Translations under genes and position numbers: made by a program
Assembly: GCF_013315695.1 (NCBI RefSeq)
Contig: NZ_CP054353.1
Source of the DNA: Escherichia coli
GTDB taxonomy: Bacteria; Pseudomonadota; Gammaproteobacteria; Enterobacterales; Enterobacteriaceae
Strand: one strand, 5' to 3'
DNA: 64,000 nucleotides
In this document: positions 11,993 to 34,678 of the stretch, piece after piece
How positions within the stretch are numbered: position 1 is the stretch's first letter
Layout of the letters: the number at the start of each line of letters is the position of its first letter
Notes under the pieces: generated by a model
Database searches by the model: none
Told to the model about the DNA's origin: nothing
The model's input: only the letters and a program-made list of their open reading frames with translations

Positions 11993-12004
11993 AAGGAAAA
12001 TATT

Positions 12005-12991
12005 ATGAAATTACGCTCTGTAACCTACGCATTATTCATTGCTGGCCTGGCTGCATTTAGTACATCTTCAATGGCGGCGCAATCTTTACGTTTCGGTTAT
12101 GAAACCTCACAAACCGACTCGCAACATATTGCGGCGAAAAAATTCAATGATTTATTGCAGGAGAGAACCAAAGGCGAGCTGAAATTAAAACTGTTCCCGG
12201 ACAGCACTCTCGGTAACGCGCAGGCGATGATCAGCGGCGTACGTGGCGGCACCATCGATATGGAAATGTCCGGCTCGAATAACTTTGCCGGGTTATCACC
12301 AGTGATGAACTTGCTTGATGTCCCTTTCCTGTTCCGCGATACCGCTCACGCGCATAAAACGCTCGACGGCAAAGTCGGTGATGATCTGAAAGCCTCACTT
12401 GAAGGTAAAGGACTAAAAGTACTGGCCTACTGGGAAAACGGCTGGCGCGATGTCACCAACTCGCGCGCACCGGTTAAAACCCCCGCCGACCTGAAAGGGC
12501 TGAAAATCCGCACCAACAATAGTCCGATGAATATCGCAGCATTCAAAGTCTTTGGCGCTAACCCGATCCCGATGCCGTTTGCCGAAGTCTATACCGGGCT
12601 GGAAACGCGCACTATCGACGCTCAGGAACACCCGATCAACGTCGTCTGGTCAGCAAAATTTTTCGAAGTACAGAAGTACCTTTCTCTGACGCACCACGCC
12701 TATTCGCCACTTTTGGTGGTGATCAACAAAGCGAAGTTTGATGGCTTAAGCCCGGAATTCCAGCAGGCGCTGATCTCATCTGCGCAGGAAGCGGGTAACT
12801 ACCAGCGCAAACTGGTTGCTGAAGATCAGCAAAAAATCATCGATGGCATGAAAGAAGCGGGCGTGGAAGTCATCACCGATCTCGACCGCAAAGCCTTTAG
12901 CGACGCGCTGGGTAATCAGGTTCGCGACATGTTTGTTAAAGATGTTCCGCAGGGTGCTGATCTGCTGAAAGCCGTGGATGAGGTGCAATAA
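12005..12991 (+). CDS. yiaO: TRAP transporter periplasmic solute-binding protein YiaO
   Basis: 328 aa with signal peptide; DctP-like. Confidence 0.85.
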   Translation: MKLRSVTYALFIAGLAAFSTSSMAAQSLRFGYETSQTDSQHIAAKKFNDLLQERTKGELKLKLFPDSTLGNAQAMISGVRGGTIDMEMSGSNNFAGLSPVMNLLDVPFLFRDTAHAHKTLDGKVGDDLKASLEGKGLKVLAYWENGWRDVTNSRAPVKTPADLKGLKIRTNNSPMNIAAFKVFGANPIPMPFAEVYTGLETRTIDAQEHPINVVWSAKFFEVQKYLSLTHHAYSPLLVVINKAKFDGLSPEFQQALISSAQEAGNYQRKLVAEDQQKIIDGMKEAGVEVITDLDRKAFSDALGNQVRDMFVKDVPQGADLLKAVDEVQ

Positions 12992-12994
12992 ACC

Positions 12995-14491
12995 ATGACG
13001 CAATACTGGCTGGGGTTAGATTGTGGCGGTAGCTGGCTGAAAGCCGGGCTGTATGACCGCGAAGGCCGGGAGGCAAGCGTGCAGCGCCTGCCGCTGTGCG
13101 CATTAAGCCCGCAGCCAGGCTGGGCAGAGCGCGATATGGCAGAACTGTGGCAATGCTGCATGGCTGTCATTCGCACCCTGCTTACTCATTCTGGTGTCAG
13201 CGGGGAGCAAATAGTGGGTATCGGTATCTCCGCACAGGGAAAGGGCTTGTTTTTGCTGGATAAAAACGACAAGCCGCTCGGGAATGCTATTTTGTCCTCG
13301 GACCGCCGGGCGATGGAAATCGTTCGTCGCTGGCAGGAAGATGGCATCCCGGAAAAACTCTACCCGCTGGCCCGACAAACCTTGTGGACCGGGCATCCGG
13401 TGTCGCTGTTACGCTGGCTGAAAGAGCACGAACCAGAACGCTACGCGCAAATTGGCTGCGTGATGATGACGCACGACTACCTGCGCTGGTGTTTAACTGG
13501 CGTCAAAGGCTGTGAAGAGAGCAATATTTCTGAGTCCAATCTCTACAACATGAGTCTTGAGGAATATGACCCGTGCCTCACCGACTGGCTGGGGATCGCT
13601 GAAATCAACCACGCCCTGCCGCCTGTTGTCGGATCTGCCGAAATTTGCGGGGAAATCACCGCTCAGACAGCCGCACTGACCGGTCTGAAAGCGGGCACCC
13701 CCGTTGTCGGCGGCCTGTTTGATGTGGTTTCCACCGCACTCTGTGCCGGGATCGAAGACGAATTTACCCTCAATGCGGTGATGGGCACCTGGGCGGTGAC
13801 CAGCGGCATAACCCGTGGTTTACGTGACGGTGAAGCGCATCCGTATGTCTATGGTCGCTACGTTAACGATGGTCAATTTATCGTTCACGAAGCCAGCCCC
13901 ACCTCTTCCGGCAACCTCGAATGGTTTACCGCACAGTGGGGAGAAATCTCGTTTGATGAGATTAACCAGGCCGTTGCCAGCTTGCCGAAGGCCGGGGGCG
14001 ATCTCTTTTTCCTGCCGTTCCTGTACGGCAGCAACGCCGGATTGGAGATGACCAGCGGTTTCTACGGGATGCAGGCCATTCATACCCGCGCACACCTGTT
14101 GCAGGCCATTTATGAAGGGGTGGTATTCAGCCATATGACCCATCTCAACCGGATGCGCGAACGTTTTACTGATGTGCACACCCTGCGCGTCACTGGCGGC
14201 CCGGCGCATTCCGATGTCTGGATGCAAATGCTGGCGGACGTCAGCGGGCTGCGTATCGAACTGCCGCAGGTGGAAGAAACCGGCTGCTTTGGTGCGGCAC
14301 TTGCCGCCCGCGTCGGCACCGGAGTTTATCGCGATTTCAGCGAAGCCCAACGTGACTTACAGCACCCGGTACGCACCCTGCTGCCGGATATGACCGCACA
14401 TCAGCTTTACCAACAAAAATACCAACGCTATCAGCATCTCATTGCCGCACTTCAGGGCTTTCACGCCCGCATCAAGGAGCACACATTATGA
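12995..14491 (+). CDS. lyxK: L-xylulose/3-keto-L-gulonate kinase LyxK
   Basis: 498-aa FGGY-family carbohydrate kinase. Confidence 0.85.
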   Translation: MTQYWLGLDCGGSWLKAGLYDREGREASVQRLPLCALSPQPGWAERDMAELWQCCMAVIRTLLTHSGVSGEQIVGIGISAQGKGLFLLDKNDKPLGNAILSSDRRAMEIVRRWQEDGIPEKLYPLARQTLWTGHPVSLLRWLKEHEPERYAQIGCVMMTHDYLRWCLTGVKGCEESNISESNLYNMSLEEYDPCLTDWLGIAEINHALPPVVGSAEICGEITAQTAALTGLKAGTPVVGGLFDVVSTALCAGIEDEFTLNAVMGTWAVTSGITRGLRDGEAHPYVYGRYVNDGQFIVHEASPTSSGNLEWFTAQWGEISFDEINQAVASLPKAGGDLFFLPFLYGSNAGLEMTSGFYGMQAIHTRAHLLQAIYEGVVFSHMTHLNRMRERFTDVHTLRVTGGPAHSDVWMQMLADVSGLRIELPQVEETGCFGAALAARVGTGVYRDFSEAQRDLQHPVRTLLPDMTAHQLYQQKYQRYQHLIAALQGFHARIKEHTL

Positions 14492-15150
14492 GCCGACCAC
14501 TTCTGCAACTGGCCCTCGACCACTCATCACTTGAAGACGCACAGCGCGACGTGATGCTGTTAAAAGGCAGCGTCGATATCGTCGAAGCGGGCACCATTCT
14601 CTGTTTAAACGAAGGGCTTGGCGCGGTGAAAGCCTTGCGCGAACAGTGCCCGGATAAAATCATCGTTGCTGACTGGAAGGTCGCCGACGCGGGTGAAACG
14701 CTCGCACAACAGGCGTTTGGCGCGGGTGCCAACTGGATGACCATCATCTGCGCTGCGCCGCTCGCGACGGTGGAAAAAGGCCACGCCATGGCGCAACGCT
14801 GCGGTGGTGAAATTCAGATAGAGCTGTTCGGTAACTGGACGCTGGACGACGCCCGCGACTGGCATCGTATTGGCGTGCGGCAGGCCATTTATCATCGTGG
14901 TCGTGATGCACAGGCCAGCGGGCAACAGTGGGGCGAAGCCGATCTGGCACGCATGAAGGCACTTTCCGATATCGGCCTTGAGCTTTCCATTACCGGCGGG
15001 ATTACCCCTGCTGACCTGCCGCTGTTTAAAGATATCCGCGTGAAAGCCTTTATTGCCGGGCGGGCGCTGGCAGGCGCAGCAAATCCGGCGCAGGTGGCTG
15101 GCGATTTCCATGCACAAATTGATGCCATCTGGGGAGGTGCGCGTGCGTAA
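14488..15150 (+). CDS. sgbH: 3-keto-L-gulonate-6-phosphate decarboxylase SgbH
   Basis: 220-aa OMP-decarboxylase-like protein; ATGA overlap with the lyxK stop. Confidence 0.85.
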
Positions 15151-16003
15151 TCATCCGTTAGGGATTTATGAAAAAGCGCTGGCGAAAGATCTCTCCTGGC
15201 CGGAGCGGCTGGTGCTGGCAAAAAGCTGTGGCTTTGATTTTGTCGAAATGTCGGTGGATGAAACCGACGAACGGCTCTCACGTCTTGACTGGAGCGCCGC
15301 ACAACGTGCTTCGCTGGTCACTGCGATGATCGAAACGGGTGTTGCCATTCCGTCAATGTGCCTGTCTGCCCATCGTCGTTTTCCCTTTGGCAGCCGGGAC
15401 GAGGCAGTGCGCGAACGGGCGCGGGAAATCATGAGTAAAGCGATTCGCCTGGCGCGCGATCTCGGCATTCGCACCATCCAGCTGGCAGGTTATGACGTCT
15501 ATTACGAAGACCACGACGAAGGCACCCAACAACGTTTTGCTGAAGGGCTGGCGTGGGCAGTCGAACAGGCGGCGGCATCACAAGTCATGCTGGCGGTGGA
15601 GATTATGGATACCGCGTTTATGAACTCCATCAGCAAATGGAAAAAATGGGACGAGATGCTCGCCTCGCCGTGGTTCACCGTCTACCCGGACGTCGGCAAC
15701 CTCAGCGCCTGGGGCAATGATGTTCCCGCCGAACTGAAACTGGGCATTGACCGTATCGCCGCGATCCACCTGAAAGACACCCTGCCAGTCACCGGGCAAA
15801 GCCCCGGACAGTTCCGTGATGTGCCGTTTGGCGAAGGCTGCGTCGATTTCGTTGGCATCTTCAAAACGCTGCATGAACTGAACTATCGCGGATCATTTCT
15901 GATTGAGATGTGGACCGAAAAAGCCAAAGAGCCGGTGCTGGAGATTATTCAGGCGCGGCGCTGGATTGAAGCGCGTATGCAGGAGGCCGGATTTATATGT
16001 TAG
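15143..16003 (+). CDS. sgbU: L-xylulose-5-phosphate 3-epimerase SgbU
   Basis: 286 aa from GTG at 15143 ([15 protein letters not shown]); the six-frame ORF extends upstream into sgbH. Confidence 0.8.
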
Positions 16004-16692
16004 AGCAACTAAAAGCCGACGTGCTGGCGGCGAATCTGGCGCTTCCCGTTCATCATCTGGTGACGTTCACCTGGGGCAATGTCAGCGCGGTAGACGAAAC
16101 GCGGCAATGGATGGTAATCAAACCTTCCGGCGTCGAGTACAACGTGATGACCGCCGACGATATGGTAGTGGTTGAGATAGCCACCGGTAAGGTGGTGGAA
16201 GGCAGAAAAAAACCCTCGTCCGACACGCCAACGCATCTGGCGCTTTACCGTCGCTATGCCGAAATTGGCGGTATTGTGCATACCCACTCGCGCCACGCCA
16301 CCATCTGGTCGCAGGCCGGGCTGGATCTCCCCGCCTGGGGCACCACGCACGCTGATTACTTCTATGGTGCCATCCCCTGCACGCGACAGATGACCGCAGA
16401 GGAGATCAACGGCGAGTATGAATACCAGACCGGCGAAGTGATCATTAAAACCTTCGAAGAACGTGGGTTGAACCCGGCACAAATCCCGGCTGTACTGGTG
16501 CATTCTCACGGCCCGTTCGCCTGGGGAAAAAACGCCGCCGATGCGGTGCATAACGCCGTGGTGCTGGAAGAGTGCGCCTATATGGGCCTGTTCTCGCACC
16601 AGCTTGCGCCGCAGCTCCCTGCGATGCAAAACGAACTGCTGGATAAGCACTACCTGCGTAAACATGGGACCAATGCCTATTACGGGCAGTAA
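15997..16692 (+). CDS. sgbE: L-ribulose-5-phosphate 4-epimerase SgbE
   Basis: 231-aa class II aldolase/epimerase (AraD-like). Confidence 0.85.
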
Positions 16693-16723
16693 TCCCTCAC
16701 GCCGGGGCTTCATCGCCCCGGCA

Positions 16724-17539
16724 CTACGAATTGATATGTTCCTTGCTGTAACGCCGCTTCCACGCTGCTGGCGTTAAACCAGTGTGTTTGCGAAAAATCT
16801 GCCGGAAATAGCCAACGTCATTAAACCCGCACAACGCCGCCACTTCAGTGAGCGATCGCGCTTCGCTAATTAACAGCTTTTCGGCTTCGCGCACTCGCTG
16901 GCGATGAATTGCTTCTGTTAACGTCAGATGAAACACCCGCCGATAGACGCGCCCAAGATAATCGGCATTGCAGTACAGCTCGCGGGCTAAAAGCGCCGTG
17001 GAAAGCGGGCGGTGATATTGCGTGCGAATCAGTTTCTGTGCTTTCCAGGCAAGGGTGGTGCCTGCACCATCGGCCTGTTCATCAAGACGCGCGTCACGGG
17101 TGAGCTGCTGCAAAATCAGCAGCACAATAAACTCCAGCGCCGGAGTGCGTTGATGCTTTTCCTGTTCGCTTAAGAACTGGCGAAACAAGGCCACCAGCAC
17201 CTGCGGATCGGCAACCTTAGTTTGTTGCGGCACGCTAAGATGAGTGAGCCAGCGCGGATCGTTGTCCGGCGCTTTAACCTCAAAATGCAGCCAGTAAAAT
17301 TTGAGATCGGCGGGAAAATCCTCCACCCCAACATGCTGTCGGTTCGGCCAGAGTAATAAACTCTCTCCCGCATCGACCAGAAATATCCGCTCTTCTTCCT
17401 GAATCGCTAATCGACCTTTTTCGACAAAGATAATTTCCCATGACTCCAGCCGCCTTGCCGGATGCCTCCCTACGCCACGGGAAATAAATAATCCACCATT
17501 TTGCACTTTAATCGGTAACGTCATGGATAATTCGAGCAT
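16724..17539 (-). CDS. AraC/XylS-family transcriptional regulator (accessory sugar-utilisation cassette)
   Basis: 271 aa; N-terminal cupin-like sensor and C-terminal AraC HTH; divergent from the transporter gene. Confidence 0.8.
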   Translation of the reverse strand: MLELSMTLPIKVQNGGLFISRGVGRHPARRLESWEIIFVEKGRLAIQEEERIFLVDAGESLLLWPNRQHVGVEDFPADLKFYWLHFEVKAPDNDPRWLTHLSVPQQTKVADPQVLVALFRQFLSEQEKHQRTPALEFIVLLILQQLTRDARLDEQADGAGTTLAWKAQKLIRTQYHRPLSTALLARELYCNADYLGRVYRRVFHLTLTEAIHRQRVREAEKLLISEARSLTEVAALCGFNDVGYFRQIFRKHTGLTPAAWKRRYSKEHINS

Positions 17540-17587
17540 TGATATGTAATTTCCCGCTTATTCATTAATGATTAAACACATTACCTT

Positions 17588-17602
17588 TTGATTATTAATC
17601 AA
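17588..17602. promoter_or_regulatory. 7-1-7 inverted repeat TTGATTA-t-TAATCAA in the divergent AraC/transporter promoter region (candidate operator)
   Basis: Inverted repeat read directly in the 225-bp intergenic region. Confidence 0.3.
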
Positions 17603-17764
17603 AAACATTAATTTCACCTGATCCAATTCACACTTTTAAATTCAGGTCGGAATCGTCACCTTTTTTTACTCTTTTCTCGCCTTGTTGATATTCCCGTTCA
17701 CGGCAGAATTAATCATGTCATTGCAATAAAACTAAAAATTGCTCCCTATTCACGAGGAATATCT

Positions 17765-19165
17765 ATGACCTCTACACCGATTACTACCGCTGATATCGCT
17801 AAAGGTAAAATTGACGATGCGTTATCTGTACGGGAAAAAATAGGCTACGGCCTGGGTGACGCAGGCGGCACCGTAATAACTTGCCTGATCATGAACTTTC
17901 TCACCTTTTTCTACACCGACGTTTTTGGCTTAACTCCGGCGCTGGTCGGCACGCTGTTTATTGCACTGCGCGTGTTTGATGCCATCTCCGACCCGGTGAT
18001 GGGCGTCATTGCCGACCGGACGCAAAGTCGCTGGGGGCGCTTTCGTCCGTGGCAGTTATGGATTGCCATTCCCATCGGCATTATCGGCATCCTGACGTTC
18101 ACCGTGCCAGATGCCAGCATGGGAGTAAAAATCGCCTGGGCGTTCGGTACTTACCTGCTCCTTTCAGTCGGTTATACCGCCATCAACGTACCGTACTGCG
18201 CGCTGATCAACACCATGACCACCCGCCACAATGAAGTGATCTCCTGCCAGTCCTGGCGATTCGTTCTCTGCGGCGTAGCGGGATTTCTGGTTTCGGTAGG
18301 CTTACCGTGGATGGTAGATCTCTTCGGGCAGGGTAATGCCGCGCGCGGCTATCAACTGGGCGTCGGCGTATTGTGCGCCATTGCCGTGGTGATGTTCCTG
18401 TGCTGTTTCTTCTGGGTTCGTGAACGGGTGCCGCTCTCCACAATGGGGAAATTTACCCTGCGCGAACATCTTGCCGGGCTGCGGAACAACGACCAACTGC
18501 TGCTGATGCTGGTCATGTCTTTCCTGCTGATTAACGTCTTTAATATTCGCGGCGGTGGGTATATGTACTTCATTACCTACGTCTTACAAGGCAGTACGGG
18601 CTACACGTCGCTGTTCTTCACCATGGTCACCTTCGCCTCCATTATCGGCTCGGTGATTGTCAGCCCATTAACGCGGCGTTTCGATACCGTCAAAATTTAT
18701 TACTACACCAACCTGCTCCTCGCTTCACTGGCGGTGTTGATGTGGTTCCTGCCCTCCGGCCCGGCTTATCAAACGCTGTGGCTGGCGGTGATCCTCGGTA
18801 ATGGCGTGATTCTTGGCTTCACATTGCCACTGCACTTCTCATTGATGGCCTTTGCCGATGACTACGGCGAGTGGAAAACCCGCGTACGTTCTTCCGGCAT
18901 GAACTTCGCCTTCAATCTGTTTTTCATCAAGCTGGCCTGGGCCTCCAGCGCCGGGATCATCAGCCTGCTGTTTATTTTTGTCGCCTACCAGCCAGGCGTG
19001 GAAAACCAGACCACCAGTTCGCTTGGCGGGATCGCGGCGATGGAAACATTGCTGCCTGCGCTGTTCCACCTGCTGCTGGCGATGGCGATCCGCTTTTGCA
19101 AACTCAATAACCCTATGATGTCACGCATTGCTAGCGACCTGCGTCAGCGTCATGTACAGCCTTAA
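17765..19165 (+). CDS. glycoside-pentoside-hexuronide (GPH) family cation symporter, MelB-like
   Basis: 466-aa 12-TM-type protein with N-terminal GYGLGD motif typical of GPH transporters. Confidence 0.8.
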
Positions 19166-19175
19166 GGAGCACAAG

Positions 19176-21155
19176 ATGAACATTTCGGAAGTCGATCTGC
19201 ATAAACTGACGGTCAGCGATCCGTTCCTCGGTCAGTACCAACAACTGGTCCGCGATGTGGTGATTCCTTATCAGTGGGACGCCTTGAACGATCGTATCCC
19301 AGAAGCGGAACCCAGCCATGCGATTGAAAACTTTCGCATTGCCGCAGGACTGCAAGACGGTGAATTTTACGGGATGGTGTTTCAGGACAGCGACGTCGCC
19401 AAATGGCTGGAAGCGGTAGCCTGGTCGCTGTGCCAGAAGCCGGACGCCGAACTGGAAAAAACCGCCGACGAGGTGATTGAACTGATCGCTTCCGCCCAGT
19501 GCGAAGATGGCTATCTCAATACTTACTTTACGGTAAAAGCGCCCGAAGAACGCTGGAGCAATCTGGCGGAGTGTCATGAACTTTACTGCGCCGGTCATCT
19601 GATTGAAGCCGGAGTCGCCTTCTTCCAGGCTACGGGCAAGCGGCGCTTGCTGGAAGTAGTTTGCCGTCTGACCGATCATATCGACAGCGTATTTGGTCCA
19701 GATGAAAGTAAGTTACACGGTTATCCTGGTCACCCGGAAATTGAACTGGCACTAATGCGCCTGTATGAAGTGACCGAAGAGCCGCGCTACCTGGCGTTGA
19801 CGAACTATTTTGTCGAACAGCGTGGTGCGCAACCGCACTATTACGACCAGGAATATGAAAAGCGCGGGCAGACCTCGCACTGGCACACCTACGGCCCGGC
19901 GTGGATGGTGAAAGATAAAGCCTACAGCCAGGCGCATTTGCCCATCGCACAGCAACAAACCGCCATCGGACATGCAGTACGCTTTGTATATCTGATGACT
20001 GGCGTCGCACATCTGGCGCGTTTAAGTCACGATGAAAGCAAGCGTCAGGATTGCCTGCGGCTGTGGAACAATATGGCCCAGCGTCAGTTATATATTACCG
20101 GCGGCATTGGCTCACAAAGCAGCGGCGAAGCGTTCAGCAGCGATTACGATCTGCCGAATGACACGGTTTACGCCGAAAGCTGTGCTTCCATCGGCCTGAT
20201 GATGTTCGCCCGGCGAATGCTGGAAATGGAAGGCGACAGTCAATATGCCGATGTGATGGAGCGCGCACTGTACAACACCGTGCTCGGCGGCATGGCGCTG
20301 GATGGCAAACATTTCTTCTATGTGAATCCGCTGGAAGTACATCCAAAATCGCTGAAATTCAACCATATCTACGATCACGTTAAGCCGATCCGCCAGCGTT
20401 GGTTTGGTTGCGCTTGTTGTCCGCCAAATATCGCCCGCGTGCTAACCTCGATTGGTCATTATCTCTACACGCCGCGTGAAGATGCGTTGTATATCAACAT
20501 CTACGCAGGAAACAGCATGGAAGTGCCGGTAGAAAATGGCACGTTGCGTCTGCGGGTTAGCGGAAACTATCCGTGGCAGGAACAGGTGACAATTGCGGTT
20601 GAATCGCCCCAGCCGGTGCGTCATACGCTGGCTTTACGTCTGCCGGACTGGTGCACACAGCCGCAGATCATATTGAATGGGGAAGAGGTCGAGCAGGATA
20701 TTCGTAAAGGGTATTTGCACATTACCCGCGAATGGCAGGAGGGCGACACGCTGAATCTAACTTTGCCAATGCCAGTACGTCGCGTTTACGGTAACCCGCT
20801 GGTGCGTCACGTCGCCGGAAAAGTGGCGATTCAGCGCGGCCCGCTGGTTTATTGCCTGGAACAGGCCGACAACGGCGAGTCACTGCATAACCTGTGGCTG
20901 CCCGCCGATGCGCCATTTACGACATTTGAAGGTAATGGATTGTTCCGCCATAAGATCTTAATCCAGGCACCGGGTTACCGGTATGAACAGAGCAATCCAG
21001 AGCAGCAACCGCTGTGGCATTACGACAGTGCGCCAGCCAAACGCCAGCCGCAAACTCTGACGTTTATCCCGTGGTTTAGCTGGGCTAACCGGGGTGAAGG
21101 CGAAATGCGGATCTGGGTGAATGAGGAAAAGCATTGCCATCCGGAGGTTGGATAA
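19176..21155 (+). CDS. glycoside hydrolase family 127 (DUF1680) protein, beta-L-arabinofuranosidase-like
   Basis: 659 aa from ATG at 19176 preceded by AAGGAG; contains the GCACCPPN cysteine-rich motif of GH127 enzymes; the six-frame ORF starts 48 bp earlier. Confidence 0.8.
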   Translation: MNISEVDLHKLTVSDPFLGQYQQLVRDVVIPYQWDALNDRIPEAEPSHAIENFRIAAGLQDGEFYGMVFQDSDVAKWLEAVAWSLCQKPDAELEKTADEVIELIASAQCEDGYLNTYFTVKAPEERWSNLAECHELYCAGHLIEAGVAFFQATGKRRLLEVVCRLTDHIDSVFGPDESKLHGYPGHPEIELALMRLYEVTEEPRYLALTNYFVEQRGAQPHYYDQEYEKRGQTSHWHTYGPAWMVKDKAYSQAHLPIAQQQTAIGHAVRFVYLMTGVAHLARLSHDESKRQDCLRLWNNMAQRQLYITGGIGSQSSGEAFSSDYDLPNDTVYAESCASIGLMMFARRMLEMEGDSQYADVMERALYNTVLGGMALDGKHFFYVNPLEVHPKSLKFNHIYDHVKPIRQRWFGCACCPPNIARVLTSIGHYLYTPREDALYINIYAGNSMEVPVENGTLRLRVSGNYPWQEQVTIAVESPQPVRHTLALRLPDWCTQPQIILNGEEVEQDIRKGYLHITREWQEGDTLNLTLPMPVRRVYGNPLVRHVAGKVAIQRGPLVYCLEQADNGESLHNLWLPADAPFTTFEGNGLFRHKILIQAPGYRYEQSNPEQQPLWHYDSAPAKRQPQTLTFIPWFSWANRGEGEMRIWVNEEKHCHPEVG

Positions 21156-21270
21156 GGCGCTCGCGCCGCATCCAACGTAGGGTGCACATTGCCTGATGCG
21201 ACGCTTAACACGTCTTATCAGGCCTACAAGTCGGTGCGAGAGCGTAGGCCAGCCGCACCGACATCCACCG
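21152..21270. repeat. REP/BIME palindromic units between the GH127 gene and yiaT
   Basis: Repeated GC-rich palindromes (gccgcatccaacgtagg, cctgatgcgacgc, cttatcaggcctac). Confidence 0.5.
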
Positions 21271-21275
21271 GTGAA

Positions 21276-22016
21276 TTAAAAACGCCAGCTCACGCCGGTG
21301 ACAAAGGTAAAACTCTCATTACGATCAACCATCGGGCTGTCGGTAATCTCTTCCGGCAGCTCGCTGTATCCGGCGCTCGCCATCAATACGACGTGCTCTC
21401 CTATCGGGTATTTTGCCGTCAGGCTGACATAGGGCACCCAGGCATCCTGCGCGGAATAACTTGCCAGACCGCTACGACGGGACTCACTCTCTGAAATGCC
21501 ATAGTAATAGTCACTGAAATTCTCGTCATAATAGAGAACGCCCAGCGCAGGTGTCAGCGACAGGCGACCTATCTGCATTTTGTGGAATACCGATAGCTCC
21601 CCCACCCAGCCGTTGCTGTTATCCAGAACGTCCGCAGCCGCAGAGGCTTTCACGGTTCCCCAACGCTCGTGGTGATACCAGGCAACCCCCGCCATAGCCG
21701 TACTATCACGCTTATCAAGCTGTTGCATGGCATAATCGTCATTATCGGCAGGGTCAAATTCCAGCGGCATCCAGGATGCGGTCAGGCTAAGTTCATTTTT
21801 TTCACTTTGCGACAGAATAAAACCTAACGTGGTCTGACGAACATAAAAAGTATCACCTTCATAACTAATCAGCGGAATTGCCTTTGTATTTTCATTATAA
21901 CCGCGATAAGGCGATTCATTATAAGCCGCACCAGCACCAATGGATAATTCAGAAGCAGTTGCACTTGCCATAAAAGGCAACGCAAATAACACCACAATAT
22001 TGCGGTTAATTAACAT
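21276..22016 (-). CDS. yiaT: MipA/OmpV-family outer membrane protein YiaT
   Basis: 246 aa with signal peptide and C-terminal aromatic residue (…VSWRF). Confidence 0.8.
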   Translation of the reverse strand: MLINRNIVVLFALPFMASATASELSIGAGAAYNESPYRGYNENTKAIPLISYEGDTFYVRQTTLGFILSQSEKNELSLTASWMPLEFDPADNDDYAMQQLDKRDSTAMAGVAWYHHERWGTVKASAAADVLDNSNGWVGELSVFHKMQIGRLSLTPALGVLYYDENFSDYYYGISESESRRSGLASYSAQDAWVPYVSLTAKYPIGEHVVLMASAGYSELPEEITDSPMVDRNESFTFVTGVSWRF

Positions 22017-22139
22017 GTCCGGTATTCCATTTTAAAATAAGATAAAAAAGAGTCGGCATAGTAATGCTTACAATTTCTCCGGTGCAAGATTCATATTTAT
22101 ATAGTAATATATAAAATTATATATAATTGGACTGTTGCG

Positions 22140-23114
22140 ATGACAAAATTACAACTTAAGTACCGGGAGTTAAAAATTATCTCGGTAATCGCTGCCAGTG
22201 AAAATATCAGCCATGCCGCGACTGTACTTGGCATCGCACAGGCCAACGTCAGCAAATATCTTGCTGATTTTGAATCAAAAGTGGGTTTAAAAGTCTTTGA
22301 CCGAACCACCCGACAGCTGATGCTCACACCTTTTGGCACCGTGCTGTTACCGTACATCAACGACATGCTGGACAGAAACGAGCAGCTTAATAATTTTATT
22401 GCAGATTATAAGCATGAGAAACGTGGTCGGGTCACTATCTATGCACCAACCGGCATAATTACCTATTTATCCAAACATGTAATCGATAAAATTAAAGATA
22501 TCGGTGATATCACCTTATCGCTAAAAACCTGCAATCTTGAGCGTAATGCCTTTTATGAAGGCGTCGAATTTCCCGATGATTGTGATGTTTTAATCAGCTA
22601 CGCCCAACCAAAAGATGAATCGCTGGTTGCCAGTTTTATTACCCAATATGCCGTAACCGCTTATGCCAGCCAGCGCTATCTTGGGAAACATCCCATTAGC
22701 CGTCCTGACGAACTCGAACATCACTCCTGTATTTTGATCGACTCGATGATGATCGACGACGCGAATATCTGGCGCTTCAACGTCGCCGGGAGTAAAGAGG
22801 TGCGGGATTATCGCGTGAAGGGAAATTACGTTTGCGACAACACGCAATCTGCGCTGGAGCTGGCACGAAATCACCTGGGGATTGTGTTTGCGCCAGACAA
22901 AAGTGTGCAGAGCGACCTGCAAGACGGCACGCTGGTGCCCTGCTTTCAGCACCCGTATGAATGGTGGCTGGATCTGGTGGCTATCTTCCGTAAACGGGAA
23001 TACCAGCCCTGGCGGGTCCAGTATGTGCTGGATGAAATGCTGCGTGAAATTCGCCACCAGCTTGCTCAGTCGCAGCAACTGCGGCCTGAACAAGCGGCGG
23101 AAAGCGAAGATTAA
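22140..23114 (+). CDS. yiaU: LysR-family transcriptional regulator YiaU
   Basis: 324 aa; N-terminal HTH and LysR substrate-binding domain. Confidence 0.85.
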
Positions 23115-24247
23115 TGATCGAGATAAAGGTAATGCACCCAGCTGGTCATGCGTAACAGTACTTTGCGCATCACCGAGACATGGCTGAAATGATCAGAGTA
23201 GACCGCCACCTGGGCGTAAATACCGTCTGGTAATGCGCTCAAATCAGTATGCTCATCCAGTTCAATGGTCGCGATAACGCCATCTGAACCCGGCTCTGTG
23301 TTTAACGTCTGTAAGGTGCCGGTCGACTGATAAGCTCCGCCGGGAACGGCTGGACTAATGGCTGCCAGCTTACCGCTGAATACCTTACCTGGCAGAGCAT
23401 TAAACACCACTTCCGCATCGTCGCCAGGAGCCAGTCGCAGCAAGGAGTTCTGACGGAACTGCGCCACGATTTGTCGTTTCTGATCGGGTATAAACACCAT
23501 CACCGGACGTAGCGGCAGCGACGCGGCATAGGTACCCGGACGAATCAGTACCTGGGTCACATAACCATCGCTCGGCGCACGCACTATCGTCTGCTCAAGG
23601 TTATATTTTGCTTCCGCGAGCTGCGCTTTCAGGCTGGCGATTTGAGAATGTTCACCCAACACCAGGCTATCCAGCTGGCTCTGGATCTGTTTTTGTTCCG
23701 CCGCCGCTGATTTTACGGAGGCTTCCTGCGCCAGATAATTTTGCCGCGCCACATCGATATCGCGTTCTGAAAACGGGTTTACTTTCGCCTGACTGCCGCG
23801 TGCGTAACGCTGATACTCTTTAGCGAATTTATCCCGCGTGGCCTTTGCCTGCTGAGTATTCGCCGCCATCTCATCTAACTCTGCGCCCAACGCCCGCTGT
23901 TTATGTTCTGCGGTAACGATATCCGCCATCAGCCGATCCACCCGCGCCTGATAACGCGTCGGGTCCAGTCGAAATAGCACCTCACCTTTTTTAATCAGCG
24001 TATTTTTCTTGTCCGTCACTTCGATCACCACGCCTGTCACCTGTGGGACAACAGGAATAGAAATAACCGCTTTTTGCGCTTTAAAGGTATACGGATGGTT
24101 ATAGTTCATTAACAGAATTAAACCGCTGACAATAAATATGCCACCCAGGGCCGCGGTGGGAATGGTCCATTTATTTACAGGAATTTTGAAGATCTTAAAC
24201 ATTGCCCATGCGAAAGCCACATAGGTCAAAATAATCAGTAAATCCAT
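23111..24247 (-). CDS. yiaV: HlyD-family membrane fusion protein YiaV
   Basis: 378 aa; N-terminal TM helix, coiled coil and beta-barrel sandwich; paralogous to yibH in this window. Confidence 0.85.
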
Positions 24248-24252
24248 AAGTA

Positions 24253-24576
24253 TTACTCGGCAGAAGAGGATTTGATGTCGGCGAGCTGTTTCTCCAGCCC
24301 GGCAATACGCTGTTGTAGTTGCACAACGGAGGAGTCATGGTTTTGCATTCCCCATCCCCGCTCCGGGCGGTAAAGCGTGGCCCAAATCCACAAAAATGGC
24401 CAGATAACATGCAGCGTAAAAAGACTCACCCAACCAGCAACATGAATGGCGTCGGCATGAGGATGATTACGTTTTTTAGCAATCAGGTAGGGAATATCAT
24501 GTAAAATAATAATCCCATAGAAGATCACCAGAAATACAAAAATAAGCACTCCCAGTGCAAAATAATCCAGGAACAT
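24253..24576 (-). CDS. yiaW: DUF3302-family inner membrane protein YiaW
   Basis: 107 aa from [11 protein letters not shown]; about 90% identical to yibI in this window. Confidence 0.8.
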
Positions 24577-24994
24577 ATTTCCCTCAGAGAATATAAAAAA
24601 GAACAATTAACGCATATTATGAAATACCATAATGCGGTGCAATTTCCTTATTTATATAACGACATATGGTTTTTTATATACTTTCTGAAGTGTGTGCCTG
24701 GCTTTTCAACAGGTCGAAGCTTATCATATTGAAATAATGTAACTATTGACCAAATTTATGAATAAAAACCGTAAAACATCCACAATGCAGATTAAGCGTA
24801 TTAAACCTTCAATTATCTACCGTTTATTGCTGATTGGCCTCGGAACGCCAATGGTGATTTATGGCCTGGTTCGCCCGCTCACCATCGAAACGCGAGATTA
24901 AACTCCTGGCAAAACACGCCCCAGAAACGCACTTCTGTTGGCGTAGTCTGGGTTATTGCGCACGTAGATTTAAAACGTAAATTGTAACAACGTG

Positions 24995-25095
24995 CGCTTT
25001 GTTTATGCCGGATGCGGCGTGTACGCCTTATCCGGCCTACGGTCAGGTCCCCGTAGGCATGATAAGACACGTAAGCGTCGCATCAGGCAATGAAT
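24995..25095. repeat. REP/BIME palindromic units downstream of aldB
   Basis: Canonical REP strings gccggatgcggcgtgtacgccttatccggcctacgg and gcgtcgcatcaggc. Confidence 0.55.
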
Positions 25096-25119
25096 ACCCA
25101 ATGCGACCAGCTTCTTATA

Positions 25120-26658
25120 TCAGAACAGCCCCAACGGTTTATCCGAGTAGCTCACCAGCAGGCACTTGGTTTGCTGGTAATGCTCAAGCATCATCTTATG
25201 GGTTTCGCGTCCGATGCCCGACTGTTTGTAGCCGCCAAACGCCGCATGTGCCGGGTAAGCGTGATAACAGTTGGTCCACACGCGCCCGGCCTGAATGCCG
25301 CGCCCCATCTTATAGGCCAGATTACCGTTGCGGCTCCAGACACCCGCGCCCAGGCCATATTGCGTGTCGTTCGCCAGCTCCAGCGCCTCGTCCATCGTTT
25401 TGAAGGTGGTTACCGCTAGCACCGGGCCAAAAATCTCCTCCTGGAACACGCGCATATTATTCTGACCAAACAGAATCGTCGGTTCGAGGTAGTAGCCGTC
25501 TTTCAGTTCGCCTTCCAGCAGCTTGCGCCGCCCGCCGGTGAGCACGTCTGCGCCCTCTTTTTTACCAATATCAATGTAGTTGAGGATGGTTTCCAGTTGC
25601 CCGTGAGAAACCTGCGCCCCCATTTGCGTCACGCTGTCGAGCGGGTTACCGCTACGAATGCTTTCGACACGGCGGATGGCGCGTTCCATAAAGCGTTCGT
25701 AGATAGACTCCTGCACTAAAGCACGGCTTGGACAGGTGCAAACTTCGCCCTGGTTAAAGGCAAACAGTGCAAAGCCTTCCAGCGCTTTATCGAAAAAGGC
25801 ATCTTCTTCATCCATCACATCAGCAAAGAAGATATTTGGCGACTTGCCGCCCAGTTCCAGGGTTACCGGAATAATATTTTGCGTGGCGTACTGCATAATT
25901 TGTTGGCCCACTTCCGTTGATCCGGTAAACGCCACTTTGGCGATGCGTTTCGAGGTCGCCAGATATTCGCCAATTTCCCCACCAGCGCCGTTAACCACGT
26001 TCACCACGCCCGGCGGCAGTAAATCACCGACGATTTCCATTAGCAGCAGTACAGAAAGCGGGGTAAGACGTGCGGGTTTCAGCACCACACAGTTGCCCGC
26101 CGCCAGCGCGGGAGCCATTTTCCAGCTCGCCATCAGCAGCGGGAAGTTCCACGGAATAATCTGCCCCACCACGCCTAACGGTTCGTGGAAGTGATAAGCC
26201 ACAGTTTCGCTATCCACTTCACTAATACCGCCTTCCTGCGCCCGAATACACGAGGCAAAATAGCGAAAATGGTCAATCGCCAGCGGCACATCAGCAGCAC
26301 TGGTTTCGCGAATGGGTTTGCCGTTATCCCAGGTTTCAGCGGTCGCTAACAGTTCGAGGTTCTGCTCCATCCGATCGGCAATCTTAAACAGAATCGCCGC
26401 GCGATCCTGCACCGAAGTATGCGCCCATTTATCTTTCACTTTGTGCGCAGCATCCAGCGCCAGATCGATGTCTCGTTTGCCCGAAGACGCCACTTCGCAC
26501 AGCAGCTGTCCGGTCACCGGCGTCAGGTTCTGGTAATACTCGCCGTCGGCAGGGGCTACCCATTCGCCGCCAATAAAGTTGTCGTAGCGGGCTTTTAACT
26601 TGAGGGGGAAACCATACTCGCCGGGCTTAATCTGTGCTGAAGGGGGATTATTGGTCAT
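25120..26658 (-). CDS. aldB: aldehyde dehydrogenase B
   Basis: 512 aa starting [15 protein letters not shown]; aldehyde dehydrogenase catalytic Cys/Glu motifs; the six-frame ORF is 30 codons longer upstream. Confidence 0.9.
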
Positions 26659-33541: not shown

Positions 33542-34678
33542 TCAATGATCCAAATAAAGATAATGCATCCAACTGGTCATTCTCAGCAGCACCTTCCGCA
33601 TCACCGAAACATGGCTGAAATGGTCGGAGTAAACTGCCACCTGGGCGTAGATGCCGTCGGGTAAAGCATCGATATCATCGTTGGGGTCCAGTTCAATGGT
33701 TCCCAGCACACCGTCCGTGCCGGGCACGACCGTTAATGATTGCAATACCCCTTGCGCCTGATACGAACCGCCTGGCACGACAGGTAAAATACTAGTCAGT
33801 TTGCCGTGGAACACCTGCCCAGGTAGCGCGTTAAACACCACTTCCGCATCATCGCCGGGTTTCAGACGTAACAGCGAGTTCTGCCGAAATTGGGCGACAA
33901 TTTGCCGTTTTTGCTCGGGGATGAAAACCATCACCGGACGTAGCGGCAAGGCAGCTGCGTATGTACCTGGGCGGATCAGTACCTGAGTAACGTAGCCATT
34001 GCTTGGTGCGCGAATGACAGTCTGCTCAAGGTTATATTTTGCTTCAGTAAGTTGCGCTCTTAAGCTCACAATCTGCGATTGCTCGCCGTTAACCATACTG
34101 TCGAGCTGGCTCTGGATCTGCGCCTGCTCCGCCACCGAGCCTTTCACCAGCGCGTCCTGCGCGAGGAAGTTTTGCCGCGCATCGTCGATGTCACGTTCCG
34201 AGAACGGATTCACCGCCGCCTGGCTGCCTTTCAGGTAACGTTGATAATTTTTAAACAGACGGTCGCGCTCCGCTGAAACCTGGGTGGTGTTGGCCTGCGC
34301 TTCAGTGAGCTGCGCGCGCAGCGTCTTTATATTATGCGTCGCCGTCATCAGGTCAGCCTGAAGTCTGTCAACTCGCGCCTGGTAACGAACCGGGTCGAGC
34401 TTAAAAAGCACCTCGCCCTTTTGAATAAGCTGATTATTTTTGTCGGTGACTTCAGTAACAATTCCCGTCACCTGTGGCGTGATGGGGATCGCTATCACTG
34501 CCTTTTGCGCGGTAAAAGTGTAAGGGTGGTTGTAGTTCATCAACAAAATCAAACCACTCACCAGAAACACGCCTCCCAGCGCCGCCGTCGCCAGCGTCCA
34601 CTGATTTACCGGAATGCGGAAGATTTTAAAGACCGCCCACGCCAGCGCCACGTAAGTTAAAACAATCAATAGATCCAT
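33542..34678 (-). CDS. yibH: HlyD-family membrane fusion protein YibH
   Basis: 378 aa; paralogue of yiaV, same length. Confidence 0.85.

Follow-up and report, generated by a model that had tools for sequence, protein, structure and literature searches.

Between sgbE and yiaT of an Escherichia coli strain there is a three-gene module, most likely for the use of a sugar, which is described here from a stretch of 64,000 nucleotides (contig NZ_CP054353.1 of assembly GCF_013315695.1, hereinafter called the window). Over the region tested, the sequence of the window shows no difference from the chromosome of E. coli isolate AF3 (NZ_OZ547117.1). The sgbE gene, annotated as araD-like (15997–16692), stops at 16692, and the yiaT gene lies at 21276–22016 on the minus strand, so that the gap between them is exactly 16693–21275. 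It is filled by three intact, full-length open reading frames (ORFs): an AraC/XylS-family regulator of 271 aa on the minus strand (16724–17539), a glycoside:cation symporter of the GPH family (TC 2.A.2) of 466 aa on the plus strand (17765–19165), and a glycosidase of glycoside hydrolase family 127 (GH127) of 659 aa on the plus strand (19176–21155). RefSeq already names all three at the family level. The GH127 gene starts 10 nt past the stop codon of the symporter gene, and its AAGGAG ribosome-binding site (19164–19169) overlaps that stop, so the two genes form one operon, divergent from the regulator gene; the symporter gene itself has a GAGGA ribosome-binding site 7 nt upstream of its ATG. 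Between the two transcription units lies a divergent control region of 225 bp (17540–17764). No mobility genes are annotated at the module in the window, and no secreted glycosidase is encoded at the locus. The first-pass annotation had listed the same kinds of genes and a cluster of repetitive extragenic palindromic (REP) elements on the 3′ flank, all of which were recovered, and had proposed a possible uptake and cleavage of a plant-derived beta-L-arabinoside. This is also the best hypothesis here, with a beta-L-arabinofuranoside as the predicted substrate. That is to say, the module is probably an ancestral unit of regulator, symporter and cytoplasmic GH127 enzyme that imports and cleaves small plant beta-L-arabinofuranosides, and that was lost from K-12 by deletion.

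First of all, the glycosidase carries all three Pfam domains of the GH127 family (PF07944, E 1.2e-111, residues 12–427; PF20736, E 1.3e-23; PF20737, E 3.6e-25), with similarity along its full length to the catalytic (alpha/alpha)6 domain and the two beta-sandwich domains, and it belongs to that family (DUF1680/GH127). The closest solved structure is a GH127 enzyme of Geobacillus stearothermophilus (4QJY), with E 1.7e-234 and 54% identity over 630 aligned positions, followed by HypBA1 of Bifidobacterium longum (PDB 3WKW, E 7e-153), and both align over the full length. It has been reported that HypBA1 uses Cys417 as the nucleophile and Glu322 as the acid/base, together with a Cys3-Glu zinc site (PMC8106489), and that its substrate site is made up of His142, Tyr145, His194 and Arg273 (PMC10850190). 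In the alignment to 3WKW, the nucleophile corresponds to C414 of the window protein, located in the GCACCPPN motif (residues 411–418; codons 20406–20429, plus strand), and the acid/base corresponds to E318 (codon 20127–20129, plus strand). The zinc ligands Glu338, Cys340, Cys417 and Cys418 correspond to E334, C336, C414 and C415 (codons of E334 and C336 at 20175–20183, plus strand), C412 and C415 stand at the places of Cys415 and Cys418, and the four residues of the substrate site are H134, Y137, H186 and R269. Thus the catalytic cysteine, whose absence the first-pass annotation had named as fatal to its idea, is present with all of its partner residues, and the catalytic, zinc and substrate-site residues are all invariant across 81 orthologs. 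As read from the sequence, the N-terminus (MNISEVDLHKLTV…) has no signal-peptide character, and therefore the enzyme should be cytoplasmic. Taken at the level of its residues, the protein is a predicted cytoplasmic beta-L-arabinofuranosidase (EC 3.2.1.185) of the cysteine–zinc retaining type.

The symporter, a protein of the 12-TM type, scores 333 bits with TIGR00792 (cut-off 231.35, residues 25–462), which places it in the GPH:cation symporter family, and the GYGLGD motif by which it had been called MelB-like corresponds to residues 27–32. At the finer level, the nearest NCBIfam subfamily is YagG with 356 bits against a cut-off of 610, and the scores for PRK11462 (325 against 836), MelB (208.6 against 456) and the glucuronide transporter (193 against 528) also fall short. 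Because the protein lies below the YagG, MelB and glucuronide-transporter cut-offs, it is regarded as a GPH subgroup of its own. When it is compared with Salmonella MelB (4M64, E 1e-37), the residues R52, D55 and D59 are kept as R69, D72 and D76; in MelB, Arg52, Asp55 and Asp59 of helix II serve cation coupling. Cation symport by the GPH protein is therefore likely from its residues, which do not specify a particular cation or sugar.

The regulator consists of an N-terminal cupin ligand domain (AraC_binding, E 6.5e-8, residues 26–132) and a C-terminal double helix-turn-helix (HTH) domain (HTH_18, E 4e-19, residues 184–263; HTH_AraC, E 5e-8), and this architecture assigns it to the AraC/XylS family. 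With the AraC ortholog model NF007860 it reaches 60.6 bits against a cut-off of 208; it is below all NCBIfam equivalog cut-offs and far below those of AraC, RhaS/R and MelR. The name "Arabinose operon regulatory protein", given by some sources, is unsupported by such a score. Two Rfam matches within the regulator gene (isrK and c4-a1b1) are far below threshold and were dismissed.

The control region was studied by aligning 68 divergent intergenic regions across loci, in which sharply conserved blocks stand amid freely drifting sequence. Conservation is strongest in the block AGGTCGGAATCGTCAcc-TTTTTtTACTc (AGGTCGGAATCGTCA…TTTTTtTACTc; 17644–17671, plus strand), which is located just upstream of a putative -35 hexamer and, by analogy with the araBAD and rhaBAD promoters, is a candidate binding region for the AraC-type activator. 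Downstream of it, two conserved hexamers, TTGTTG (17682–17687) and CAGAAT (17704–17709), flank a spacer of 16 nt whose sequence varies and whose length is constant across the aligned regions, and because of this arrangement they are taken as the putative operon promoter (17682–17709, plus strand). A simple scan found no sigma-70 consensus promoter in the control region, which fits promoters that depend on an activator. Upstream of the block, a CRP-like site of the form CCTGA-N6-TCACA (17617–17632, no strand assigned) has two mismatches to the consensus, and its right half TCACA and the GA-TC of its left part are nearly invariant across genera; it is kept as a conservation-supported hypothesis only. 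If the operon starts near 17716, the CRP-like site would be centred at about -92 and the long block would extend from about -73 to -45; from the putative start of the regulator gene, predicted near 17584 on the minus strand, the same site would lie at about -41. Still further upstream there is a perfect 7-1-7 palindrome, TTGATTA-T-TAATCAA (17588–17602, no strand assigned), again in conserved columns of the alignment, the core of which (TGATTATTAA) is conserved in most genera. It holds a minus-strand -10-like AATAAT for the regulator gene, and it may be an operator or the -10 region of that gene.

An alternative -10 hexamer was also considered for the operon (TATACT in most genera and TTTACT in E. 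coli, 17666–17671). It would put the CRP-like site at about -52, an unfavourable position, and the downstream TTGTTG/CAGAAT pair is preferred on this reading of the sequence. Where sgbE and the regulator gene converge, the sequence can be read as a GC-rich hairpin, GCCGGGGC-ttcatc-GCCCCGGC (16701–16722, no strand assigned), which is followed by a U-tract on neither strand and may act as a terminator. The terminator-like matches from a scan of the window lie inside genes and are about twice as many as expected from shuffles, and they were not used.

At the other end of the module, two REP palindromes in opposite orientation, like those of a bacterial interspersed mosaic element (BIME), occupy 21146–21227 without assigned strand, as judged from pattern, pairing and Rfam. 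They lie at 21147–21176 and 21190–21227, and their stems pair. The second agrees with a REP consensus pattern with no mismatch, where no such match was expected by chance. Rfam reports naRNA4 (RF02564) at 21146–21224 with 68.3 bits on the plus strand and 53.7 on the minus strand against a threshold of 59.5. We take naRNA4 to be a family derived from a REP element, and the match is read as REP/BIME membership rather than as a specific small RNA gene. A 42-bp piece of the pair matches elsewhere in another E. coli genome; that is, the element is dispersed, and with its GC-rich imperfect palindromes and consensus match it belongs to the REP/BIME class. The GH127 reading frame runs into the first REP, which overlaps its stop codon and provides its final few codons, so that orthologs from other genera are about 9 aa shorter than the E. 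coli protein.

To see how old the module is at this site, one can turn to a cross-species scan with one genome per species, which returned 80 loci. Of these, 67 contain the trio of regulator, symporter and GH127, and they represent 24 named genera of the order Enterobacterales, namely Escherichia, Citrobacter, Salmonella diarizonae, Klebsiella, Raoultella, Enterobacter, Lelliottia, Leclercia, Kluyvera, Kosakonia, Phytobacter, Buttiauxella, Pantoea, Mixta, Mangrovibacter and others. In the trio loci sgbE is directly on the left in 24, yiaT is directly on the right in 19, and both are present in 9; loci that lack yiaK-sgbE or yiaT still have the same genes in the wider neighbourhood (ysaA, aldB, yiaY, selAB). 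Protein identity drops roughly with taxonomic distance, from 96–97% in other Escherichia to 72% in Enterobacillus. The ratio of nonsynonymous to synonymous substitution rates (dN/dS) is 0.07–0.14 for the regulator, 0.03–0.07 for the symporter and 0.03–0.07 for GH127, and all three genes are under strong purifying selection. Their dS is of the same order as that of the neighbouring sgbE and often saturated, and their GC content (0.47–0.56) is like that of the flanks. Owing to this spread over 24 genera, the conserved neighbourhood, the course of identity with distance, the dN/dS and dS values and the normal GC content, the module is an old resident of this chromosomal position, ancestral to Enterobacterales, and not an inserted cassette.

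Several further observations were made in the same scan. GH127 proteins of Bradyrhizobium spp. (seven loci) are 71–72% identical to the E. coli enzyme, compared with 54% for that of Geobacillus, and their genes stand beside neither a GPH symporter gene nor one for an AraC-type regulator. This suggests a transfer of GH127 between Enterobacterales and plant-associated Alphaproteobacteria. The Bradyrhizobium neighbourhoods hold a PAS histidine kinase, a peptidase and unannotated ORFs, none of which gives a clue to the substrate; neither does the Hafnia locus, where the GPH gene is cut by the edge of the locus and is followed by tsaC and trp genes. Enterobacteriaceae bacterium MGYG-HGUT-00110 has two GPH–GH127 pairs on different contigs, with an identity to the E. 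coli proteins of 84–86% in one pair and 70% in the second, and so a paralogous second copy exists in some Enterobacteriaceae. The module of "Chryseobacterium sp. 18061" is 85% identical to that of E. coli, with the layout and coordinates of Citrobacter sp. 18056 from the same project, and that assembly is probably mislabelled or contaminated.

Within E. coli, 5426 complete genomes were surveyed. The full-length module is present in 2313 of them (43%), remnants with identical end points are all that is left in about 2470, including K-12, and 641 give no match. All copies of the module are single and chromosomal, and none is on a plasmid. In a number of genomes the match is 4431 bp long instead of 4432 bp. 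The statement that sgbE and yiaT are adjacent in K-12 holds insofar as the three genes are absent from MG1655, so that the module is not common to all E. coli; what intervenes there is a gap of 347 bp with two pseudogene remnants annotated by RefSeq, one being the final 104 bp of the regulator gene and the other a stretch of 189 bp from within the GH127 gene. When K-12 is compared with the window by BLAST, two deletions are resolved, neither of which is assigned a strand. The first, of about 4.02 kb (16828–20849), runs from within the regulator gene to within the GH127 gene and has no microhomology at the joint; the second, of 216 bp (21039–21254), lies between 6-bp direct repeats CCAGCC (21033–21038 and 21249–21254) and removes the 3′ end of the GH127 gene and both REPs. 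The K-12 remnant of GH127 is 89% identical to the window, and the flanks are 95–99% identical, which is consistent with long neutral decay of the remnant. Since remnants of both end genes persist, the difference in K-12 is a deletion and not an acquisition elsewhere. Deletion has thus made the module a presence/absence polymorphism among E. coli strains, and the K-12 junction is the joint of two deletions; the word "accessory", used of the cassette in the first-pass annotation, is right in the pan-genome sense only, for an element that is ancestral at its site and that K-12 and about half of E. coli have lost by deletion. In a strain description the remnants are named ysaC and ysaD, and the K-12 scar (MG1655 locus L001, 3725–4018) serves as a neutral reporter integration site, for example in strain RB290 (PMC12361893). 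These two pseudogenes are now explained as the two ends of the module.

The neighbours of the module have been lost in other ways. E. coli O157:H7 has kept the module and lost yiaK-sgbE, and a stub of an IclR-family (yiaJ-like) gene lies beside the regulator gene; an O25:H4 strain of sequence type 131 (ST131) has the module and lacks yiaTUVW; and in an avian pathogenic E. coli (APEC) of type O18 both the module and yiaTUVW are gone, with sgbE joined directly to aldB. By comparison of these loci with 12000–26000 of the window, the neighbourhood from yiaK to aldB is thus a deletion hot spot in E. coli. APEC O18 also has an extra DUF4862 gene between yiaL and yiaM.

Based on the above, the following pathway is proposed, in which we infer the substrate, the coupling ion, the inducer, all of the regulatory sites and the ecological source of the sugar. 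A small beta-L-arabinofuranoside would reach the periplasm; the leading candidate is Araf-beta-1,2-Ara (beta-arabinobiose, in which Araf denotes arabinofuranose), the natural substrate of HypBA1, which would come from plant hydroxyproline-rich glycoproteins. Other candidates are short oligosaccharides with terminal beta-Araf from arabinan or arabinogalactan proteins (PMC10850190). The locus is without a secreted glycosidase, which implies that the substrate would be liberated by plant tissue or by other microbes, for example through bifidobacterial GH121. The GPH symporter would then import the glycoside across the inner membrane, and GH127 would cleave it in the cytoplasm by a zinc-dependent retaining mechanism with a cysteine nucleophile, of the HypBA1 type. 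L-arabinose freed in this way would be used through the standard AraBAD pathway, and the AraC-type regulator with its sugar ligand bound, probably together with CRP, would activate the rightward operon of two genes.

A number of points weigh against this account. Loop A, which covers the active site of HypBA1 (residues 35–49; PMC10850190), is 12 residues shorter in the window protein and in 4QJY alike, and for this reason the preference for the aglycone (+1) may differ from that of HypBA1. The symporter is below every NCBIfam equivalog and subfamily cut-off, and two residues of the MelB cation and sugar sites are altered in it (N58 to Ser, D124 to Asn). The activity of the closest solved homolog, Ara127N, is said to have been assigned largely by homology, and GH127 includes enzymes for other furanose-like sugars. 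As for regulation, a match to the CRP pattern is in itself at chance level, as 21 were found in the window and 27 expected, and the regulatory model, which draws on conservation alone, is attractive but unproven. In addition, 57% of E. coli genomes are without the module, and repeated loss suggests that it is dispensable in many niches. The literature searched yielded neither enzyme assays, growth tests or expression data on enterobacterial members nor any enzymology or genetics of the module, only a pan-genome association and CAZy count tables.

Some of these points would suit an enzyme for another sugar, be it aceric acid as for BT1003, 3,6-anhydro-D-galactose as in Zobellia, or some other glycoside that the symporter would carry. 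GH127 is a polyspecific family, NCBIfam has a model for aceric acid hydrolases, and the shorter loop A and the literature without biochemical data for the enterobacterial clade leave room for it. However, the aceric acid hydrolase model (NF049879, BT1003 type) gives 456.4 bits against a cut-off of 950 and covers residues 252–649 only. GH127 members of other roles match far more weakly than 4QJY and HypBA1, with E values of 1.6e-114 for 6EX6 and 6.7e-95 for 5MQO, and they align with the C-terminal two-thirds only instead of the full length. Moreover, all four residues of the HypBA1 substrate site are invariant, and another sugar is considered rather unlikely.

It is quite improbable that the module persists in E. 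coli as a cryptic relic that is in decay and serves no function at present, as at least three different deletions in the module or its neighbours (K-12 type, APEC O18 type, and the flank in ST131 and O157) and its absence from most genomes might suggest. Both the window and the sampled carriers have intact ORFs of full length, and dN/dS stays at 0.03–0.07 even against the close relative E. whittamii. The GH127 gene of the ST131 strain (locus L085, 8177–10146) is flagged by RefSeq as "frameshifted" by a 1-bp deletion at codon 651 (window position 21127), and it was considered as an inactivated pseudogene and rejected as such: the change lies past the conserved C-terminus (…WVNE), affects only residues beyond position 650 and swaps only a short tail. 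Judged by its place in the protein, this deletion should be harmless. The genomes with a match of 4431 bp mentioned above may carry the same type of variant.

One might also think of the module as a functional part of the adjacent yiaK-sgbE system for L-pentose/2,3-diketo-L-gulonate, to which it would feed an L-sugar, given that SgbE is annotated as an AraD-type L-ribulose-5-phosphate 4-epimerase and that the regulator gene lies at most 500 bp from sgbE in 24 of the 67 trio loci. This is very improbable: the module comes with a separate regulator and promoter region and is convergent with sgbE, with the hairpin in between; it is retained with no adjoining yiaK-sgbE in O157:H7, Citrobacter amalonaticus, Kluyvera, Buttiauxella and Pantoea, and strains of the K-12 and APEC O18 types keep yiaK-sgbE without the module. 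Finally, the view that some E. coli lineages acquired the genes horizontally, as an island between sgbE and yiaT, for which absence from K-12, carriage by 43% of the genomes and REP elements at one edge could be cited, is scarcely credible in view of the truncated outer genes with identical end points in K-12 and about 2470 genomes (a deletion scar), the trio at the same position in Citrobacter, Enterobacter, Lelliottia, Klebsiella, Salmonella diarizonae and others, an identity that roughly tracks taxonomic distance, normal GC, no mobility genes and no copy on a plasmid.

The preferred reading, an ancestral import-and-cleavage unit for beta-L-arabinofuranosides, leaves current concepts unchanged, and the module is an uncharacterised member of known families (GH127, GPH symporter and AraC-type regulator). 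It predicts that E. coli strains differ in the use of beta-L-arabinofuranosides, with K-12 as a natural null, and it would add a cation-symporter route for beta-arabino-oligosaccharides to the bifidobacterial route through ATP-binding cassette (ABC) transporters. A pan-genome study of 2024 found that an accessory gene "GH127" co-segregates with epithelial invasion in isolates from inflammatory bowel disease (IBD) (PMC11879602; commentary PMC11954838), and it cites the activity of HypBA1 for this gene by analogy (PMC11879602). Because the presence or absence of the module goes back to an old deletion polymorphism that whole lineages have in common, this association could reflect phylogenetic confounding. 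Caution is thus needed, since links between "GH127" and invasiveness in pan-genome data may mirror a lineage-structured deletion polymorphism and not a virulence function. A bolder proposal is that this is the first GPH-type symporter system for beta-L-arabinofuranosides, that it supports cross-feeding of Enterobacterales on beta-arabino-oligosaccharides of plant glycoproteins freed by other microbes, for example through bifidobacterial GH121, or in planta, and that the resulting colonisation difference could be causal in the link with invasion in IBD, and the gene not just a lineage marker; taken as a whole, this is speculative and quite improbable. If it were true, the retention of the module in lineages such as O157:H7, ST131 and E. 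coli B against its loss in K-12-like lineages would lead to a real difference in colonisation.

Two features elsewhere in the window may be recorded. At 35260–35436 there are four strong CRP consensus sites within 180 bp, three of which are perfect TGTGA-N6-TCACA, just upstream of an ORF at 35580–37493 that we take to encode the mannitol phosphotransferase system permease MtlA; multiple CRP sites are a known feature of the mtlA promoter. In addition, two HlyD-family genes (33542–34678 and 23111–24247) encode proteins with near-identical N-termini (MDLLI[IV]LTYVA…); one of them is yiaV, and its paralog is presumably yibH.

Compared with known systems, the proposed control of the module resembles that of araC-araBAD and rhaSR-rhaBAD, in which a CRP site is followed by sites for AraC-type activators upstream of the -35 hexamer. 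The likeness consists of a divergent regulator gene, a regulator with a cupin and a double HTH domain, a weak -35, conserved upstream blocks and a CRP-like site at a compatible distance. The difference is that the regulator is not an ortholog of AraC, RhaS/R or MelR, and the binding sites and starts of the module are putative. In its gene content the module is like the enterobacterial pairs of a GPH symporter and a cytoplasmic glycosidase, namely melB-melA, uidB-uidA, yicJ-yicI and yagG-yagH, as a GPH cation symporter stands in an operon with a glycoside hydrolase that has no signal peptide. Unlike these pairs, the partner enzyme is from a different glycoside hydrolase family, and the symporter is below the YagG, MelB and glucuronide-transporter cut-offs.

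With HypBA1 (Bll1HypBA1, BLLJ_0211) of B. longum, the founding beta-L-arabinofuranosidase of GH127, the enzyme shares the catalytic, zinc and substrate residues. HypBA1 is intracellular and splits imported Araf-beta-1,2-Ara, although its match is weaker than that of 4QJY and its loop A is the longer one; the ABC importer and the secreted GH121 and GH43 partners of the bifidobacterial system are absent from the module locus. The closest solved relative is Ara127N (AraN) of the arabinan cluster of G. stearothermophilus T6 (4QJY/4QK0), which is 54% identical end to end and has the same three-domain layout, a short loop A and an identical GCACCPPN-type motif. The Geobacillus gene reportedly belongs to a large cluster for arabinan that also encodes ABC transporters and alpha-arabinofuranosidases, whereas the partners of the window GH127 are a GPH symporter and an AraC-type regulator only.

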